Positions 31,584 through 38,345 of a stretch of DNA of 64,000 bases are shown piece by piece (position 1 is the stretch's first letter; each line of letters opens with the position of its first letter). The DNA is from Truepera sp. GTDB taxonomy: Bacteria; Deinococcota; Deinococci; Deinococcales; Trueperaceae. The stretch lies in assembly GCA_965218435.1 (NCBI GenBank), contig CBDCKW010000009.1, positions 896,001 to 960,000 of the forward strand. The letters are read 5' to 3'. The notes under the pieces are model-generated. The model did not search any database. It saw only the letters and a list, made by a program, of their open reading frames with translations, and was not told the origin of the DNA. The position numbers and the translations under genes are program-made.

Positions 31584-32832
31584 AAATTTTCTTTAACGCC
31601 GAGTGGCAAAAACGGCTGCAACTGCTCAAAAGCCGCGCCGATACTGAGCGTTTGGGCGTCGGTTTGCCGTGCAGTAACTATTTGCAACCCTACCGGTAAG
31701 CCGTCACCAAGGCCGCATGGGACGGAGAGCGCGGGGAGTCCGAGCAGGTTCAAAGGGCCGGTAAAGTGCATTTCGGCAGCTCCTTCGTCACCGGTGACGC
31801 TCGGGTCTTCGGCGGGCGCAACCCACGGCACGGTCGGTGTGAGCAGCGCGTCTACCGCAAGAAAGTGCTCGGCCACGCGGCGCTGCAAGGTTTGCTGAAC
31901 TTTTTGTGCTTTGAGGTAAGTTATAGCGGAGACGGTCAAGCCCTGCTCGAGCTGCGCCAAAGTTCCAGGCGCATAATCCTCTTTACGGTGCAAGGTGTCC
32001 TCGTGAATCAGACTCGCTTCGGGGAGCAACATGTCTAACAGGGCGGGGCTGGCCCCCTCGAGTCCCAGTTCAACTTCGACAATTTCCGCGCCAGCGGCGC
32101 GGAACACGTTACAAGCCTCTGCAAACGCCGCTAAAACAGCAGGCTGAACCTCCGTTTTTTCCAAGTAGCTGGGATCAACGCCGAACCGCAAACCTTCAAG
32201 CGTGATGTCTAACGGAAACGCTCGGCCGGTTAGAACCCCTAGCAGCGCCGCCGCGTCGCGGCAAGTGCGGGCAATCGGCCCTACATGGTCGAGCGACCCC
32301 GACAGCGGAAAAACTCCTTCTGCGTCAACCAAACCGTAACTCGGCTTAAACCCAACAACGCCGCAGTAGGACGCCGGGATCCGGATCGAACCGCCCGTAT
32401 CGGTACCTACCGCCGCAAAACACAGCCCTGCAGCAACCGCCGCTGCGCTGCCACCCGACGAGCCTCCGGCAGTGTGCGCGTGATCCCAAGGGTTGAGCGT
32501 CGGACCGAAGTCCGGGTGGACGACGCCGTAGGCGAACTCGAGCAGATTGGTTTTTCCTAAACTGATCGCGCCCGCTTCTTTCAAGCGGCGCACAACCGCC
32601 GCGTCTTTTGCCGGAACGTGCGCTGCTCTCAATCTGGAACCGTACGTTGTCCGTACCCCGGCGGTATCAACAAGGTCTTTAAGTGCCACCGGAACGCCGT
32701 GCATAAGTCCTCGGTCTAGGCCGCTAAACAGCTCCACTTCGGCGCGTTTCGCCTCTTGTCGCGCTGTTTCTGCAGTCACCGTAACGAACGTGTTGAGCAC
32801 CGGGTTGAGCTGCCCAATCCGGTTTAGCAGCG
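31574..32832 (-). pseudogene. Amidase-signature family enzyme, 5'-truncated
   Basis: GVPVALKD, GGSSGGSAAAV, GTDTGGSIRIPA; the N-terminus is replaced by antisense IS200 sequence. Confidence 0.85.
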
Positions 32833-33277
32833 TTCTGATGTACCACATAGTTTTTCCGGCGAAGCACCGTCGCGCGGTGATAGACGATGAAGTTGACAAC
32901 GTGCTCAAAGAAGTCTGCGTGGAGATTGAGAAGCGTTACGAGATCATATTTTTAGAGATAGGCACAGACAAGGATCATGTCCATTTTCTGGTGCAATCGG
33001 TGCCCACTTACACGGTTGTAAAGATCGTGCGAACGATCAAAAGTATTACCGCACGTGAAGTGTTCCGGCAATGTCCACAAGTCAAGAAGAAGCTTTGGGG
33101 GGGAGAGTTCTGGTCGGATGGCTACTTTGCCAGTACCGTAGGCAAACATGGTGATGAAGGCTTGATAGGCTCGTATGTAAGAAAGCAGGGAAAGCACTAT
33201 CAACAACTGCACCAGACGCAGCAGGGGAGCTTGTTTGACTGGAATACCCCGTCCGCTTGCGGCGGGGTTCTTTATTC
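32828..33277 (+). mobile_element. tnpA: IS200/IS605-family element (tnpA), left end deleted
   Basis: YHIVFPAKHRR, DHVH (HUH), FWSDGYF, YVRKQ; right-end hairpin ACCCCG-CCGC-TT-GCGG-CGGGGT at ~33246-33268. Confidence 0.88.
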
Positions 33278-33576
33278 GTTTTCCCAGCTTCCGCCGCCAT
33301 ACTTTTAGCCTTTTCAGCAGCCCTCAAAGCGTCTTTCTCCGCTTGCTTTGCCTGTGTGATAGCAGCTTCAACACCAAGACCCTTAAAGGTAAGGCTAGCG
33401 ATTTCGTCAACTTGCAACAACACAAGAGTAACTAATCCTGTGACAGCCAGAGGCCAGACAGATATATGAGCAACAGAGAAACCCAACACACCTAGAAGCG
33501 TAAAAGCGACGACTCCAATCTGAGCAATCGCTAGCCACCTTTCAAAAGGTTCTGGCGGCTTCACTTCTTCAGCCAT
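33278..33576 (-). pseudogene. Two-TM plus coiled-coil hypothetical protein, cut by the IS200 right end (cargo of module 2)
   Basis: Two hydrophobic helices then an AQK-rich helix; the reading frame enters the IS hairpin. Confidence 0.6.
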
Positions 33577-33668
33577 CCGAACACTCTTTGGACCTCTCTA
33601 CCAAACAGCAGTTGGGACAGCTCATAGAGGGCCGCAGCTAGTCCAGCCAGAGCGAAAAAGAGCGCCAT
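33561..33668 (-). CDS. Unannotated 35-aa membrane peptide (copy 2)
   Basis: MALFFALAGLAAALYELSQLLFGREVQRVFGWLKK; paralog of 34617-34751 with many synonymous differences. Confidence 0.65.
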   Translation of the reverse strand: MALFFALAGLAAALYELSQLLFGREVQRVFGWLKK

Positions 33669-33693
33669 TTCGACATTTTACTGTGATTGGCAC

Positions 33694-33945
33694 TTAGCCC
33701 TTGATACGGTAGCGCCCCGGCGCACTGCCTCGAGCGAGCTTTACGTCCTCGAGTAGCCCCATCTCGCGCAGACGGGTGAGAGCTGTTTGTACTGATGTCG
33801 GCGTGACCCCTAGCAGCTCGGCCAGCTCACGGACGGTGTAACTCACCGTCCCTTGAGGCCCTAGCCAGACAAAGAGCAGTTTGGTCGTCGGCGCTTCGGC
33901 TTGGAGGGCCGGGGGGAGTGGGGGCGGGTCGGTGAGGACGGTCAT
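33694..33945 (-). CDS. Small winged-HTH protein (copy 2)
   Basis: TVRELAELLGVTPTSVQTALTRLREMGLL; paralog of 34784-35062. Confidence 0.8.
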   Translation of the reverse strand: MTVLTDPPPLPPALQAEAPTTKLLFVWLGPQGTVSYTVRELAELLGVTPTSVQTALTRLREMGLLEDVKLARGSAPGRYRIKG

Positions 33946-33953
33946 AGATGAGG

Positions 33954-34592
33954 TTATCCCTCTTGCATTTGCTGCACTAGTTTGCGTTGAACCTCAGCGG
34001 TTTTTTCGATCAACTTCTTCCATTCGGTTTCGCTCTCCCGATAGTCTTTCTTCACATTGTCGAGCTCAGCCTCACGAGGGTGTAAACTAAATTCGTAAAC
34101 GCCCCACAAACCAAAAGGGACGATTTTCAGGAGATTCTCCACTTTCTTGAAAGCCTTACCTAACTCAACAATATCTGAGTTCTTTTGGATAGAGCCGTCA
34201 AACCATACCGTTAGACGCGCTAAGTCGTAGGTAAACCAAGACTGACGCATGGAACCTAAAGCGTCAAACTTTGATAGCAGCTCTCCAGATTGAACCTTAA
34301 TCTCTTCAGATTTATCATTATCTGAACTTTGATAACGCTCAAAAGTATATGCGTTAGAAATCAATCTATCGACCTCAGCAAAACTTTCAGCCAAAACCTT
34401 TATAAAACCGTCAAGTGCTTGAATTATTTCTTCAGCGTCTCGAGCTTGTTTCTCTAAGAACCACTCGCGGCGCTTATGACTACGCTCAACCTCTTTTGAT
34501 CTTGAGACGAAGTAGTTATTAAGCAAAGCGACCGCTAAAGCCGTAAAACCCCCAACGAGAGCTGACTGAACAGCGACATTAAGTGTAAGCAT
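33954..34592 (-). CDS. AT-rich hypothetical protein with N-terminal TM and helical domain (cargo of module 1)
   Basis: 212-aa intact ORF with a hydrophobic N-terminus; visibly lower GC than host genes. Confidence 0.7.
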   Translation of the reverse strand: MLTLNVAVQSALVGGFTALAVALLNNYFVSRSKEVERSHKRREWFLEKQARDAEEIIQALDGFIKVLAESFAEVDRLISNAYTFERYQSSDNDKSEEIKVQSGELLSKFDALGSMRQSWFTYDLARLTVWFDGSIQKNSDIVELGKAFKKVENLLKIVPFGLWGVYEFSLHPREAELDNVKKDYRESETEWKKLIEKTAEVQRKLVQQMQEG

Positions 34593-34616
34593 TCACGTCC
34601 TAGAACTTGCTCAAGT

Positions 34617-34751
34617 CTACTTTTCTTCACGCTTTCGGGGCTCCCCCGACCTCAACCACTCAAACATTCTTTGGGTCTCTCTACCAAAGAGCAGTTGAGA
34701 CAGCTCAAAGAGGGCTAAAGCCAACCCAGCTAGAGCGAAAAAGAGCACCAT
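34617..34751 (-). CDS. Unannotated 44-aa membrane peptide (copy 1)
   Basis: MVLFFALAGLALALFELSQLLFGRETQRMFEWLRSGEPRKREEK; GGAG 7 nt before the ATG. Confidence 0.7.
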   Translation of the reverse strand: MVLFFALAGLALALFELSQLLFGRETQRMFEWLRSGEPRKREEK

Positions 34752-34783
34752 TTCGATACTCCAGCGGGCATTACCGTTTTCCG

Positions 34784-35062
34784 CTAGTAAGTATATGGTT
34801 CTCCTAATACCTCAAATGTCGGACGCTGCCGGGGCTGCCGCTCGCCGACGTAGCACAGCAGCCCAAGGGCCTCGAGCCGCTTTATCCCCGCTGCAACTGA
34901 AGGCGGCGACGCGCCCAACGCTTCTGCCACGCCGCGCACGGTGTAGCTCACTGTCCCTTGAGGCCGCAGATACACCCACAAGAGCTTCGTTACGGGCGTC
35001 TCAGCGCGGAGCGGCTCAGGTAGCACGTAGGGGTCTCTGTGGGGCTTTCGGGACTGGCTCAT
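34784..35062 (-). CDS. Small winged-HTH protein (copy 1)
   Basis: TKLLWVYLRPQGTVSYTVRGVAEALG...; strong AAAGGA RBS. Confidence 0.8.
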   Translation of the reverse strand: MSQSRKPHRDPYVLPEPLRAETPVTKLLWVYLRPQGTVSYTVRGVAEALGASPPSVAAGIKRLEALGLLCYVGERQPRQRPTFEVLGEPYTY

Positions 35063-35078
35063 AGTTTCCTTTCATCGT

Positions 35079-35300
35079 GGCAGGGTTCCGCCGCGAGTGT
35101 AGCAATGCGGCGCAGGACTGCCCAACTCTCTCACTGACGACGCGACGGCACAAACGACTAGAGGCAGGGTTCCCCGGCACGAGCGGAGCGATGTAGCGTG
35201 GACTGCCGTTTCGCGCTCACTGTAAACGCAGCGGTGCGGAGGCGGCCAACCGCCGCCCCCGCTAGGTTAAAGGCCCTAGTGGGCCTGACCTGGCACGCGG
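35079..35300. repeat. Two degenerate tandem hairpin units plus a branched hairpin
   Basis: GGCAGGGTTCC..TGTAGC..GGACTGCC..CTCACTG at 35079 and 35163 (period 84), then GC-rich stems to 35300. Confidence 0.7.
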
Positions 35301-35302
35301 AC

Positions 35303-35671
35303 TTAATACTCGCTCGGCAACATCACCACCCATTCGCCCCCGGCGTCTTGCAAGTAGAGCTTGGTGAACCCCAACGGAAAGTCCGTAAAAGGGATGTGCT
35401 GAGCGTGATACACGGTCTTGGGTTCGCGCCCGTCATGAAGCTCGAGCGCCCCTTTACGCGCCGCTACTTTCAGCTCGAGCACCGCAAAATCATCGTCAAT
35501 TTTAGAGAGCACACTCCACGCGGGGTCCAGAACCTAGAACGCCCCGGCGTGTTCGGCTAAGTAATACGCCCCGTCGGTGCCTAACAAGCCGGGGTGCGTG
35601 CGGTGGTAGCTTTCAGAACCGCTAAAGTGCGCGAGGTTTACGGCAAGTTCGGCAGGAGAGAGGCGCATCAT
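35303..35671 (-). pseudogene. DUF6876-like protein with internal TAG
   Basis: LAHFSGSESYHR..TDGAYYLAEHAGAF*VLD..IPFTDFP..MLPSEY; the stop replaces the family's Trp. Confidence 0.7.
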
Positions 35672-36050
35672 CTGCGCCCCTCGGGTAAGTGCCGACTCAG
35701 CACAATCTGCGGCTCGACGGCAACAGTTACGAACCCCAACGGTCGACCTTCGTCCGCACGAGACTAGACAAGCTGACCAAACGCCCGGTGGGGGTCGTAA
35801 TCGTAGGTGGTGAGCATCCGCACGCCGACGCCGTGCGCGGGGCAGCGGTCGCCGGTCTGCTGGACGTAGGTGAGGGCGTCACGCCGTAAAGCAGCTTCAC
35901 AGGCCTCGAGCCCGCACTCAGCTCTTTAAGGGTTGTAAGCAGCTCGGCGTTTTGGTTTTCAAACGCCCGTTTTTCTTCTTTCATGGCTTCTTCGGCGCTT
36001 GCTAAGAGGCGGCGCAAACTCGCCACCTCATAAACTCTCTCTTGAATCAC
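35668..36050 (-). pseudogene. Degraded phage/plasmid-type coiled-coil gene
   Basis: Coiled-coil N-terminus, apparent frameshift near 35905, start/stop overlaps with both neighbours. Confidence 0.45.
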
Positions 36051-36141
36051 GCCGTCACCGGCCAGAAGGGGTCGTCTTCAGGGTCTAGGGGCTCGAGCAC
36101 GATAATCGGCGGCAGCTCGTCGTCTTCCTCGGCGGCAAGCC

Positions 36142-36454
36142 TTGCTTGAACTGCTCGACGACCGTTACGAACGCGGCTCAACCTTGATCGCCAGCCAGCT
36201 TCCAGTGGAGAGCTGGTACGAGTTTCTCGGTGACCCCACCTTAGCCGACGCTATTCTCGACCGCGTGCTGCATAGTGCCTACCGCCTTGAACTCAAAGGG
36301 GAAAGTTTAAGAAAGCGCAGACGCTTGACGAAAGAGGAGGTGACTGCGCCATAATAACGAAGCTTGCGTCGCTTCGCTCCGAGACTGGTCAGATTCGGTA
36401 AATTGCGTGGTCACGTCGCTGTAAATTGACTGCCCAAATTCGGTGGAATACGCA
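36142..36454 (+). mobile_element. istB: IS21-family remnant: istB 3' fragment and right end
   Basis: LLDDRYERGSTLIASQLP..W..DPTLADAILDR..GESLR; internal repeats ending GGAATACGCA. Confidence 0.88.
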
Positions 36455-36487
36455 GGTTGCTTAGAAAGTTGTTTCGCAGATGATTCA

Positions 36488-36925
36488 GTGAGCAGATTCA
36501 AAAGATTATCGCATAGCATCTATGAATGCAAATACCACGTGGTGTTCTGCCCGAAGTACAGGTTTCGGGTGCTGAAAGGAGAAGTCGGAGCGTACACGGA
36601 ACGCCTGCTCTACAAACTGGTGGAACAGAAAGCGGGCGTAGAAGTGCTAGAGCTAAACGTGCAGGCGGACCATGTCCACGCGGTGCTGAAAGTAGCGCCG
36701 AAGTACGCAGTATCAAGCGTCATGGGCTACCTGAAAGGAAAAGCGAGTATTCGTCTGTTCCAGCGCTACGAGAAGCTGGGAAAGCGGTACTGGGGTCGCC
36801 ACCTGTGGAGCCGAGGCTACTGCGTGAGTACGGTGGGGCTGGACGAAGAGAAAATCAGGAAGTATGTGAAATGGCAGGAGGCTAAGGAGAAGCAGCTTGA
36901 ACAACAAGGCTTGTTCAAGGAGTAA
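36488..36925 (+). CDS. tnpA: IS200/IS605-family transposase TnpA (apparently intact ORF)
   Basis: CKYHVVFCPKYR, DHVH, LWSRGY, IRKYVKWQE; hairpins downstream. Confidence 0.92.
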   Translation: MSRFKRLSHSIYECKYHVVFCPKYRFRVLKGEVGAYTERLLYKLVEQKAGVEVLELNVQADHVHAVLKVAPKYAVSSVMGYLKGKASIRLFQRYEKLGKRYWGRHLWSRGYCVSTVGLDEEKIRKYVKWQEAKEKQLEQQGLFKE

Positions 36926-37084
36926 CTAAAACCACTTGCCACCTTTCAGGGGCAGATGCCCAAGCCACTATCTCTGGTGGTGGTACTTTGACTAACGGCA
37001 AAAGCAAACGGTAACACTTTAACCGCTGACGCACATAAAAATAGACTTGCCGCAACAAAGCTGCGAGGGCTCGAGTCCAACCCG

Positions 37085-38345
37085 TAGGGCCACCGCAAAG
37101 TCAGGAAGCGAGGAGTTTAAGGAGGTAGTCGCGGTCCCAGCCTGCGCGTAAGCGTTTGGCTTCGACACCTGCCTTGATGGTTTTGTTTCGTTTCAGCAGG
37201 TTCATGGCGAGATGTCTAAGCGCGACCCAGGTCGCTTGGGCGTTTTTGAGACGTGTGCGCGGGCGGTCTTCGTCAAAAGCCACATCCAACACCCAATGTA
37301 GGCCGTTTTCGATACCCCAGTGAAAGCGTACCGTTCGGAGAATACGCTCGGCATCGAGTGGCAAGCTGGTGATGAAGTAACGGCTGTGCGCGGTTGTGTG
37401 GTTGCCGACTGTACGGCTTGCGTAGACGCGCACGATGCTGGTCAAGTCGCGCCAGCTCTCACGTTCATGCAGCCACTCGGGAACCGCCAACACCCGGCAT
37501 TCGCGTGTTTCACTGCGTCCATGCCCCTGCTCAGTCGTTTGGGTGTGGCTATGTTCAAGCTCCCAGTTGACTTTATCGGCGTAGCCGAAGAAGCCCTTGA
37601 CATCTTCAAACAGCGTGGGGTGGTTGTCCTTGAGCGCCAGCAAGTAATGTACTAGGCCCACGAGGGCCGGGCTTTGCCCGTACTAGATGCTCTCGAACCG
37701 TCCACGCCACCTGCTTGTGTTCCCATAGCGTCTGTGGTGACAACCGCCCCGGCGGGGTTGACAACTTCCAACAGTTCGGGGATGACGGTGATCTCGTTTG
37801 TCTTCTCCGGCACCTGCTGTTGGGCTAAGACAACCTCAAGCGTCTTGGACAAAACGGCATGTTCGGCTTGCGCCTCCACCGGGCCTGTCCGCTGACTCGA
37901 CCATACACTTACCGTGTGCAGTGCCCCTTCTTTGCCAGCAGAGCCTCTAGCACTCTTGCCGTCAAGCGCCAGCACCTCATCCTCTCCTTCAGCCAACGCC
38001 GGTAGCACCAGCGTCTGGGTTCAAGACAAAAAACGCGACTGCCAAGCGTCTGGACTCAGCACTGCAAACACCCGCTCAAACGTGGCTTGACTCGGTATCC
38101 CAGAAGGTAACTTTAGAAAGCTACGCAACCACGTCTCGTGTGCTAAGGCGTACTGATGTATCTGGCTATACGTGTTCGCCCCGCAGATAACCGCCAAAAT
38201 GCTGATGCACACAATGTCTACTAGCTCATGCCGAATCCCACGGCGATCACGCGGGTCGGGTAAGTTGGCAAAGTGCTTGATCAGTTCAGGTAAGTCTCGT
38301 TCTGTCATCCACCAACTCTACGTTGCCGACTTTGCGGTTGCCCTG
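37085..38345 (-). mobile_element. ISAs1-family IS, transposase inactivated
   Basis: 18-bp IRs (C/T)AGGGC(A/C)ACCGCAAAGTC; DPR, DGKS, NEIT, DAMG, HWGIENGLHWVLDV motifs; internal TGA, frameshifts and two short insertions. Confidence 0.92.

Follow-up and report, generated by a model that had tools for sequence, protein, structure and literature searches.

Do a small regulator, a membrane micro-peptide and an interchangeable membrane protein that stand side by side in a bacterial genome form one functional module, or have they come together by separate routes? The question is raised by a locus in a Truepera sp. genome (G000, 4.8 Mb), which lies in a window of 64,000 nucleotides (nt; C9:896001-960000). 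Six open reading frames (ORFs), all on the minus strand, follow each other there as two units, each with a small winged helix-turn-helix (wHTH) gene (HTH1, HTH2), a short ORF (peptide 1, peptide 2) and a gene with a hydrophobic N-terminus (cargo 1, cargo 2). The original prediction, made from the letters of the window, saw in them a chassis of regulator and peptide that recruits interchangeable membrane effectors within a mobile element. Based on comparison with related genomes, plasmids and metagenomes, a different reading is somewhat favoured, in which a wandering unit of promoter and peptide gene would have come to lie behind the last gene of a plasmid backbone and would express promoterless followers, with slots swapped by recombination.

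The peptide gene

Copies of the peptide gene are few: three in this genome and one in G005, a genome of the same genus, among 363 genomes, plus four in metagenomes (L048-L051), where four of 451 pattern matches are real. The peptides are 35-52 amino acids (aa) long and begin with about 15 uncharged hydrophobic residues (mean Kyte-Doolittle hydropathy 1.95-2.69 over residues 1-15), followed by an amphipathic stretch. The model of the family is a single helix spanning residues 2-42 (predicted local distance difference test score, pLDDT, 75). Over 33 codons, the first, second and third positions have 17, 16 and 29 variable columns, and the ratio of nonsynonymous to synonymous change (dN/dS) is 0.05-0.29 in 25 of the 27 measurable pairs, which are not independent of each other (one of 28 pairs is saturated); the other two pairs, formed by the paralogous copy with the window copies, give 0.48 and 0.66. 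Purifying selection and codon-position bias bear out the hidden membrane micro-peptide that had been proposed, and on this evidence it is a real, previously undescribed gene for a predicted membrane peptide. The same bias, together with a weak consensus RNA structure of the peptide loci (-12.5 kcal/mol, covariation term -1.3) and the lack of any Rfam match at E≤0.5 in the eight loci, led to the rejection of a non-coding RNA or a recombination site as the identity of the 94-bp segment repeated in the two units.

The peptide has no match in Pfam, NCBIfam, PADLOC or PHROG. Among 26 candidates from a set of 5.8 billion proteins, this genome's copies are the only ones; pattern matches in viral contigs give 0 of 108 and 0 of 188, and those in GTDB contigs 0 of 50, in a scan that also missed the known G005 copy and so is insensitive or filtered. 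Marginal matches in G199, G185 and G334 (E 0.001-0.0075, in frames of 99-310 aa) score below 14 bits, compared with at least 68 for the true copies, and were discarded as chance; nothing here depends on G334, which is unpublished.

The gene behind the peptide varies, as had been predicted. Of the eight copies, the two in the window are followed by a same-strand membrane gene, one by an antisense transmembrane (TM) gene, four by a gene for an HTH-coiled-coil protein and one by smc. In the four metagenome loci the peptide gene overlaps the start of the HTH-coiled-coil gene and the wHTH is absent. The ends of two of these, L048 (5367 bp) and L051 (4238 bp), overlap by 127 nt, which indicates small circles, and both are apparently complete small circular plasmids. 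In G005 the peptide stands by itself, with a broken copper-ATPase-like gene on one side and, on the other, smc, whose start is about 110 nt away, at what we take, from gene names assigned by sequence, to be the edge of a metal-resistance-like island. Thus none of the five copies outside this genome has a wHTH ahead of it.

The predicted leaderless promoter and the plasmid partner gene

Seven of the eight peptide copies have TAnnnT 6 nt before the ATG, compared with 774 of the 65,736 ATGs on C9 (1.2%). According to passages of PMC12340547, leaderless genes have their promoter in TANNNT, 6-7 bp upstream of the start codon, and the Deinococcus ribosome-binding motif is GGAG; passages of PMC4007540 describe many leaderless small ORFs in D. 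deserti. The copy lacking the box is peptide 1. Since its TGGAGT contains GGAG, 7 nt before the ATG, this box may have turned into a ribosome-binding site, and the HTH1 transcript may now be the one from which peptide 1 is translated. HTH1 itself has a Shine-Dalgarno (SD)-like purine run upstream and no leaderless box.

The HTH-coiled-coil partner gene is present in 36 of the 363 genomes, annotated just as an HTH protein. In 21 of 30 loci this gene, too, is leaderless, and none of the 30, several of which are near-identical plasmids, carries the peptide; comparison of these loci therefore indicates that the peptide was slotted in at the start of this gene. The promoters of the HTH-coiled-coil genes (L105-L134, L048-L051) are rich in short GC repeats that look operator-like. 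L048 also carries a ParE-type toxin-antitoxin pair, and L051 has a low-GC gene for a 256-aa TM protein just upstream of the peptide promoter.

The wHTH family

A search of 1.84 billion representative sequences gives 110 wHTH matches at E≤0.001. With an alignment of 52 short members, 74 matches are found at E≤1e-8 in 45 of the 363 genomes of the order, the weakest of which may be generic wHTHs; ten are in G000. Thirty loci were inspected, 29 of them outside this genome, and none of the 29 has a peptide beside the wHTH, so the conserved pairing on which the predicted chassis depended does not hold on either side. In the 23 outside loci with at least 600 nt of flank (six have too little to be counted), neither a same-strand TM-led ORF nor a short leaderless ORF stands behind the wHTH. 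The downstream genes are varied and include DUF5615, an Rpn-like nuclease, DUF6932, YhcG, TPR, AMP-binding and a D12 methylase region. A DUF6876 or helical backbone ORF is upstream of the wHTH in 13 of the 30 loci, four of which are seed loci. Judged from these neighbourhoods, the family is Deinococcota-wide and marks the edge of variable regions. In G000, three of the ten matches, counting a wHTH end remnant, precede a peptide.

Tandem wHTHs are frequent, with at least two domains in 16 of 85 proteins, among them a fused pair behind DUF6876 on contig C5. In a quick tree of 91 domains, which has few columns and leaves the deeper forks unresolved, HTH1 pairs with a copy at C9:2.897 Mb (support 97), while HTH2 groups with another copy at that site and with a gene of the G005 plasmid (support 88-90), to which it is 67% identical in aa. 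HTH1 and HTH2 share 59% nt identity over the core, with silent sites near saturation, compared with 81% between peptide 1 and peptide 2. Since the HTHs are so much further apart than the peptides and each groups with another locus, the two units did not, by this comparison, arise as one duplication: the HTHs are old paralogs, and the peptides are younger.

At L068-L074, L079 (family f4) and L080-L081 (family f2), the wHTH comes after a helical ORF of 117-138 aa, often with a GC-rich spacer, and this recurrence across distant families suggests an undescribed conserved mobile-element cluster. On C5 of this genome, the locus at G000:C5:529829-531800 (L003) has DUF6876, a fused double wHTH, low-GC genes, an HTH/IrrE-like peptidase and a PIN-like gene, and at G000:C5:464514-464828 (L004) a single wHTH stands ahead of a DUF6932-HTH-peptidase set. 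The genes behind the wHTH at both loci look like defence or toxin-antitoxin cargo.

The plasmid backbone and its decay

A 31.8-kb plasmid-like contig of G005 (G005:C3), with genes for a ParA-like protein, a tyrosine integrase and toxin-antitoxin functions, aligns to positions 35085-36140 of the window, with 78% identity over 713 nt (35085-35789) and 83% over 371 nt. The order on G005:C3 is a small ORF, a 148-aa helical ORF, DUF6876, a non-coding segment, one wHTH and a 384-aa gene, which is probably a replication gene, a label that passages of PMC12724237 did not confirm. The window copy of the 148-aa gene carries a frameshift, and that of DUF6876 an internal stop. The non-coding segment is not unusually structured in single-stranded DNA folding (z = -0.94). 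The fragment sits between insertion sequence (IS) pieces at a synteny break, and the genes flanking it have different neighbours in G001, G004 and G005. Since the match is collinear, the backbone genes are broken and IS pieces mark the break, the locus is, as far as its sequence tells, the remnant of a decaying integrated Deinococcota plasmid. The mobile-element setting claimed earlier is thus confirmed, with plasmid backbone homology and decay over about 1.05 kb.

Table 1. Features of the locus and of its paralogous site (positions in the window unless a contig is named)
Feature	Position	Strand	Remarks
wHTH 1 (HTH1)	34784..35062	-	92 aa; last gene of plasmid backbone cluster
Degenerate -10 box of peptide 1	34758..34763	-	TGGAGT; counterpart in L050 is TAGAGT
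Peptide 1	34617..34751	-	44 aa; 15 hydrophobic N-terminal residues, then predicted amphipathic helix
Cargo 1	33954..34592	-	212 aa; start 24 nt past peptide 1 stop
wHTH 2 (HTH2)	33694..33945	-	83 aa; start 8 nt past cargo 1 stop
Leaderless-type -10 box of peptide 2	33675..33680	-	TAAAAT, 6 nt ahead of ATG
Peptide 2	33561..33668	-	35 aa; stop overlaps in-frame GTG of cargo 2 (GTGA)
Cargo 2 fragment	33278..33576	-	99 codons; two hydrophobic segments predicted; truncated at IS200, 3' part lost
IS200 copy	32833..33277	+	Pfam Y1_Tnp; without left end; adjoins 5'-truncated amidase gene
GC-rich non-coding backbone segment	35063..35302	-	upstream of wHTH 1; also in G005 plasmid
DUF6876 pseudogene, plasmid backbone	35303..35650	-	Pfam PF21781; one in-frame TAG; 69.8 bits
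Frameshifted remnant of 148-aa helical plasmid-backbone gene	35671..36050	-	tblastn with G005 protein, two frames, 66-76% identity
Paralogous remnant (L001)	G000:C9:2896600-2899530		both wHTH types, GNAT, HigBA, peptide copy, TM gene

The positions given in the original prediction all check out, as do exactly 14 differences between the 94-bp segments of the two units. The repeat around these segments reaches 105 nt at 83%, and the units are spaced 1083 nt apart. The GC content is 0.63-0.64 in the HTHs, 0.50-0.54 in the peptides, 0.43 in cargo 1 and 0.49 in cargo 2, with a chromosomal value of 0.57. Pfam models of wHTH domains match both HTH1 and HTH2.

The slot between HTH1 and HTH2

A paralogous site shows what else can lie between the two wHTHs. 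At C9:2.897-2.899 Mb the order is a broken HTH1, a short ORF, GNAT, a frameshifted HTH2, HigBA, a 24-nt HTH2 end and a peptide. This peptide (52 aa) is followed by an orphan gene for a 198-aa TM protein on the opposite strand, in convergent orientation. Two different versions of the HTH2 3' end stand on either side of HigBA (C9:2.898 Mb), which raises the possibility of an attachment site in the wHTH 3' end. This was rejected: the second 24-nt copy is closer to the window HTH2 than to the local HTH2, which argues for mosaic recombination.

Four sequencing runs were aligned to the window; one of them, X1, in which the window depth is about 61, is possibly from the source sample and so is not independent. 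Record 3 of X1 is a 1208-nt contig (depth 11) in which the end of HTH1, a peptide, 641 unaligned letters and the start of HTH2 follow each other. Its insert is defined as unaligned at an 85% threshold, and the same stretch has 695 letters in the window. Over 112 nt, its peptide has 18 mismatches to peptide 2, 22 to peptide 1 and 29 to the paralog, and the order of its parts shows that it is not the C9:2.897 Mb site. In run X3, from the same study as X1, a loose end at 33956 carries a stop just where cargo 1 ends; its motif was not found in five genomes of the genus. Judged from the single X1 contig, a sibling element keeps HTH1, peptide and HTH2 with other content between. The slot is thus seen with three kinds of content: the peptide with cargo 1, a short ORF with GNAT and no peptide (C9:2.897 Mb), and the peptide with 641 unaligned letters. 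The four wHTH-to-peptide junctions (two in the window, one in the C9:2.899 Mb remnant and one in X1 record 3) have four different followers. A joint of 33945 to 34793 (depth 45, run X1) was not counted as an empty slot, as it could be this genome's paralog.

Contigs of X1 also differ from the window at single positions, 33964 and 32919, and the run has extra backbone copies at depths of about 50 and 16 that are absent from the assembly. This suggests that X1 holds several related strains or plasmids.

The slot provides no sign of an integron. The 20 largest direct and the 25 longest inverted repeats of 32500-37000 include no repeated recombination site, and the sole recombination-type genes near the locus are IS transposases.

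The cargo genes

Both cargos begin strongly hydrophobic, as predicted (maxima of 19-residue Kyte-Doolittle windows, 2.0 and 2.2), but cargo 1 has one such segment and not the several N-terminal helices proposed for it. Cargo 1 begins at the point where the peptide units cease to be homologous, and an SD-like run precedes it. Among 281 candidates it has four full-length homologs at 32-35% identity, all hypothetical or unnamed. Its AlphaFold 2 model has an N-terminal membrane anchor and four helices (pLDDT 72), and Foldseek gives no match at E≤0.001. In 363 other genomes of the phylum there is nothing but one marginal match (G162, E 9e-5), and pattern matches give 0 of 41 in GTDB and 0 of 70 in viral contigs. 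Cargo 2 has no homolog of 54-174 aa, the range searched, among 30 candidates. Its ORF does end at IS200, but the remainder is probably deleted and not merely interrupted, since the left end of this IS200 is lost (five other copies of this genome reach further to the left) and no 5' part of the adjoining amidase gene, which is intact in G004, was found in this genome.

Neither cargo matches PADLOC or NCBIfam or has a meaningful Pfam or PHROG match, and family searches, with a fold search for cargo 1, reveal no exclusion, abortive-infection or toxin function for either. KilB for cargo 1 (score 0.90, 141 shared features, 55% of members) and SpoIISA for cargo 2 (0.78) are both below the reliability mark of the tool and were not used. 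Given their low GC content and predicted membrane anchors, a role of these orphans in defence, exclusion or toxicity is plausible.

Origin of the two units

The backbone cluster of helical ORF, DUF6876, non-coding segment and wHTH ends, by comparison, in the wHTH, and passengers collect behind it. The portable piece would be about 150 bp, made up of the -10 box, the 6-nt spacer and the membrane-peptide ORF; on small cryptic plasmids it forms the first gene of a predicted transcript shared with the HTH-coiled-coil gene. Since such a unit would bring its own starts of transcription and translation, a promoterless gene at its 3' end could be transcribed, and translated through an overlap or a nearby SD sequence. 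In the window the unit would have landed behind two old wHTH paralogs, gaining cargo 1 and cargo 2. Related elements that are co-resident would then trade the slot content between HTH1 with its peptide and HTH2 through homologous recombination; neither a recombinase nor a site repeat for such an exchange was found at the locus. The peptide, a conserved small membrane protein, probably does a job that does not depend on which cargo follows, and the wHTH would be a regulator of the plasmid backbone, not a dedicated regulator of cargo. The anatomy in this account comes from comparison, and the expression, coupling and route of recombination are proposed from sequence. A bolder version, in which the unit is a minimal, recombinase-free capture adaptor of this genus that gives any gene behind it transcription and coupled translation, the peptide targets or gates membrane cargo, and the wHTH-flanked slots form an exchangeable array of membrane effectors in a natural population, is unlikely.

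Several observations weigh against a wandering unit. Just eight peptide copies were examined, several of them closely related, and all three in this genome follow a wHTH 3' end. Capture of the downstream gene is not universal: smc is some 110 nt off in G005, and the follower at the paralogous site is antisense. The apparent swap of the -10 box of peptide 1 for an SD sequence would fit a genuine HTH1-led operon. The insert of the X1 contig is known just as unaligned at its 85% threshold, and promoter activity, co-transcription and coupling are predictions from nucleotide motifs.

The predicted chassis, as a lineage-restricted functional module of wHTH regulator, peptide and interchangeable membrane effector for defence, exclusion or toxin-antitoxin, accounts for the four junctions with four followers. 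The three readable followers are hydrophobic-led, the cargo GC is 0.43-0.49, the X3 loose end shows another sequence with its stop where cargo 1 stops, and peptide 1 may be expressed as part of the HTH1 transcript. The X1 contig, with HTH1, peptide, a different insert and HTH2, also agrees with it, but the pairing of wHTH and peptide is confined to this genome and that contig. With the peptide at 0 of 29 outside wHTH loci, a wHTH at 0 of 5 outside peptides and a TM-led follower at 0 of 23, the module is improbable; moreover, the follower at the paralogous site is antisense, peptide 2 has its own -10 box and need not depend on HTH2, neither cargo matches a defence family, and the surrounding genes are pseudogenes. 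An even simpler history, a one-off tandem duplication of HTH and peptide with later replacement of one downstream gene, would explain why the units are adjacent at 1083-nt spacing. It is very improbable and, from the sequence comparisons, already largely refuted: the HTHs are far more diverged than the peptides, with silent sites near saturation, each HTH groups with a copy elsewhere and not with its neighbour, and tandem wHTH pairs are an old trait of the family.

The peptide could instead be itself the effector, a membrane-active product (type I toxin-like, lytic or exclusion) that aids small plasmids, with neighbours that are incidental or neutralising. Its length, hydrophobic N-terminus, purifying selection and several copies, always in a mobile or island-edge context, would all suit such a role. 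This reading is nevertheless doubtful, because the gene is leaderless and lacks the long structured 5' untranslated region typical of type I toxins, overlaps the downstream gene with no terminator of its own at its end, and has neither a strong consensus RNA structure nor a match in Rfam or the protein family collections. The wandering unit of promoter and peptide therefore remains the preferred explanation.

Comparison with known systems

Type I toxins such as hok, ldr, tisB, fst and txpA are short hydrophobic single-helix peptides, with several copies on mobile DNA. The peptide described here is likewise under 60 aa, a hydrophobic helix and multi-copy, but its uncharged stretch is just about 15 residues, it is leaderless and the first gene of an apparent operon, and it has no sequence match. 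No Rfam family of antisense RNA matches at the peptide loci; an undescribed RNA would escape such a search. The leader peptides tap of R1 and repY of ColIb-P9 are coupled to a downstream plasmid gene and act mainly through their translation. The peptide gene likewise is small and runs into the start of a plasmid maintenance gene, but its product is hydrophobic and under protein-level selection, and antisense control was not found. Integron arrays and phage moron or defence hotspots also place low-GC genes that vary in a slot with conserved flanks; here, however, there is no integrase at the locus and no repeated or cassette-borne site, and the promoter travels with the peptide gene.

The cryptic plasmids of Thermus and Deinococcus (pTT8 and its relatives) share the HTH-coiled-coil gene, which is found in 14 PLSDB records and stands beside RelE/ParE on pTT8. 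The peptide plasmids also share with 36 Thermus/Deinococcus plasmids a protein annotated as hypothetical, which is taken as a putative replication protein. They differ in that no PLSDB record matches the peptide or the wHTH. Leaderless genes and small ORFs of Deinococcus-Thermus, in passages of PMC12340547 and PMC4007540, share with the peptide gene both the TANNNT 6 nt before the start and the place, as an unannotated small ORF, at the 5' end of a transcript. Those that passages of PMC4007540 describe as leader peptides are short attenuators of tRNA-synthetase and amino-acid genes, whereas the peptide here is 35-52 aa, hydrophobic, conserved at the protein level and mobile.

The components thus resemble known leaderless small genes, cryptic plasmids and passenger hotspots, while the portable peptide unit appears to be undescribed; no description of the peptide or of the wHTH family was found in the open literature, a coverage that leaves out most subscription papers. 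Passenger hotspots at the ends of plasmid backbones are already familiar, and as a system the locus is a modest addition. New are a Deinococcota-wide family of small wHTHs at the edges of variable regions and a conserved, unannotated family of small membrane proteins, which moves with its own leaderless promoter between cryptic plasmids, a plasmid remnant and the edge of an island. If the adaptor reading were true, a six-base box would be enough for some 150 bp of DNA to turn on foreign genes that lack a promoter, with no integrase needed.

Other features

Two pairs of near-identical duplicated stretches are present in this genome, C5:45200-46200 with C5:287300-288300 and C2:36800-37900 with C5:190350-191500. 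They could be real repeats or assembly redundancy. In the former pair a broken wHTH stands ahead of a PIN toxin-antitoxin pair. Beyond the plasmid fragment, window positions 36142-38308 hold an ISAs1-like element in pieces, an IstB fragment and another IS200 transposase, different from the first. A further copy of the ISAs1-like element lies at C9:1482880-1484087, and this repeat marks a rearrangement relative to three relatives.

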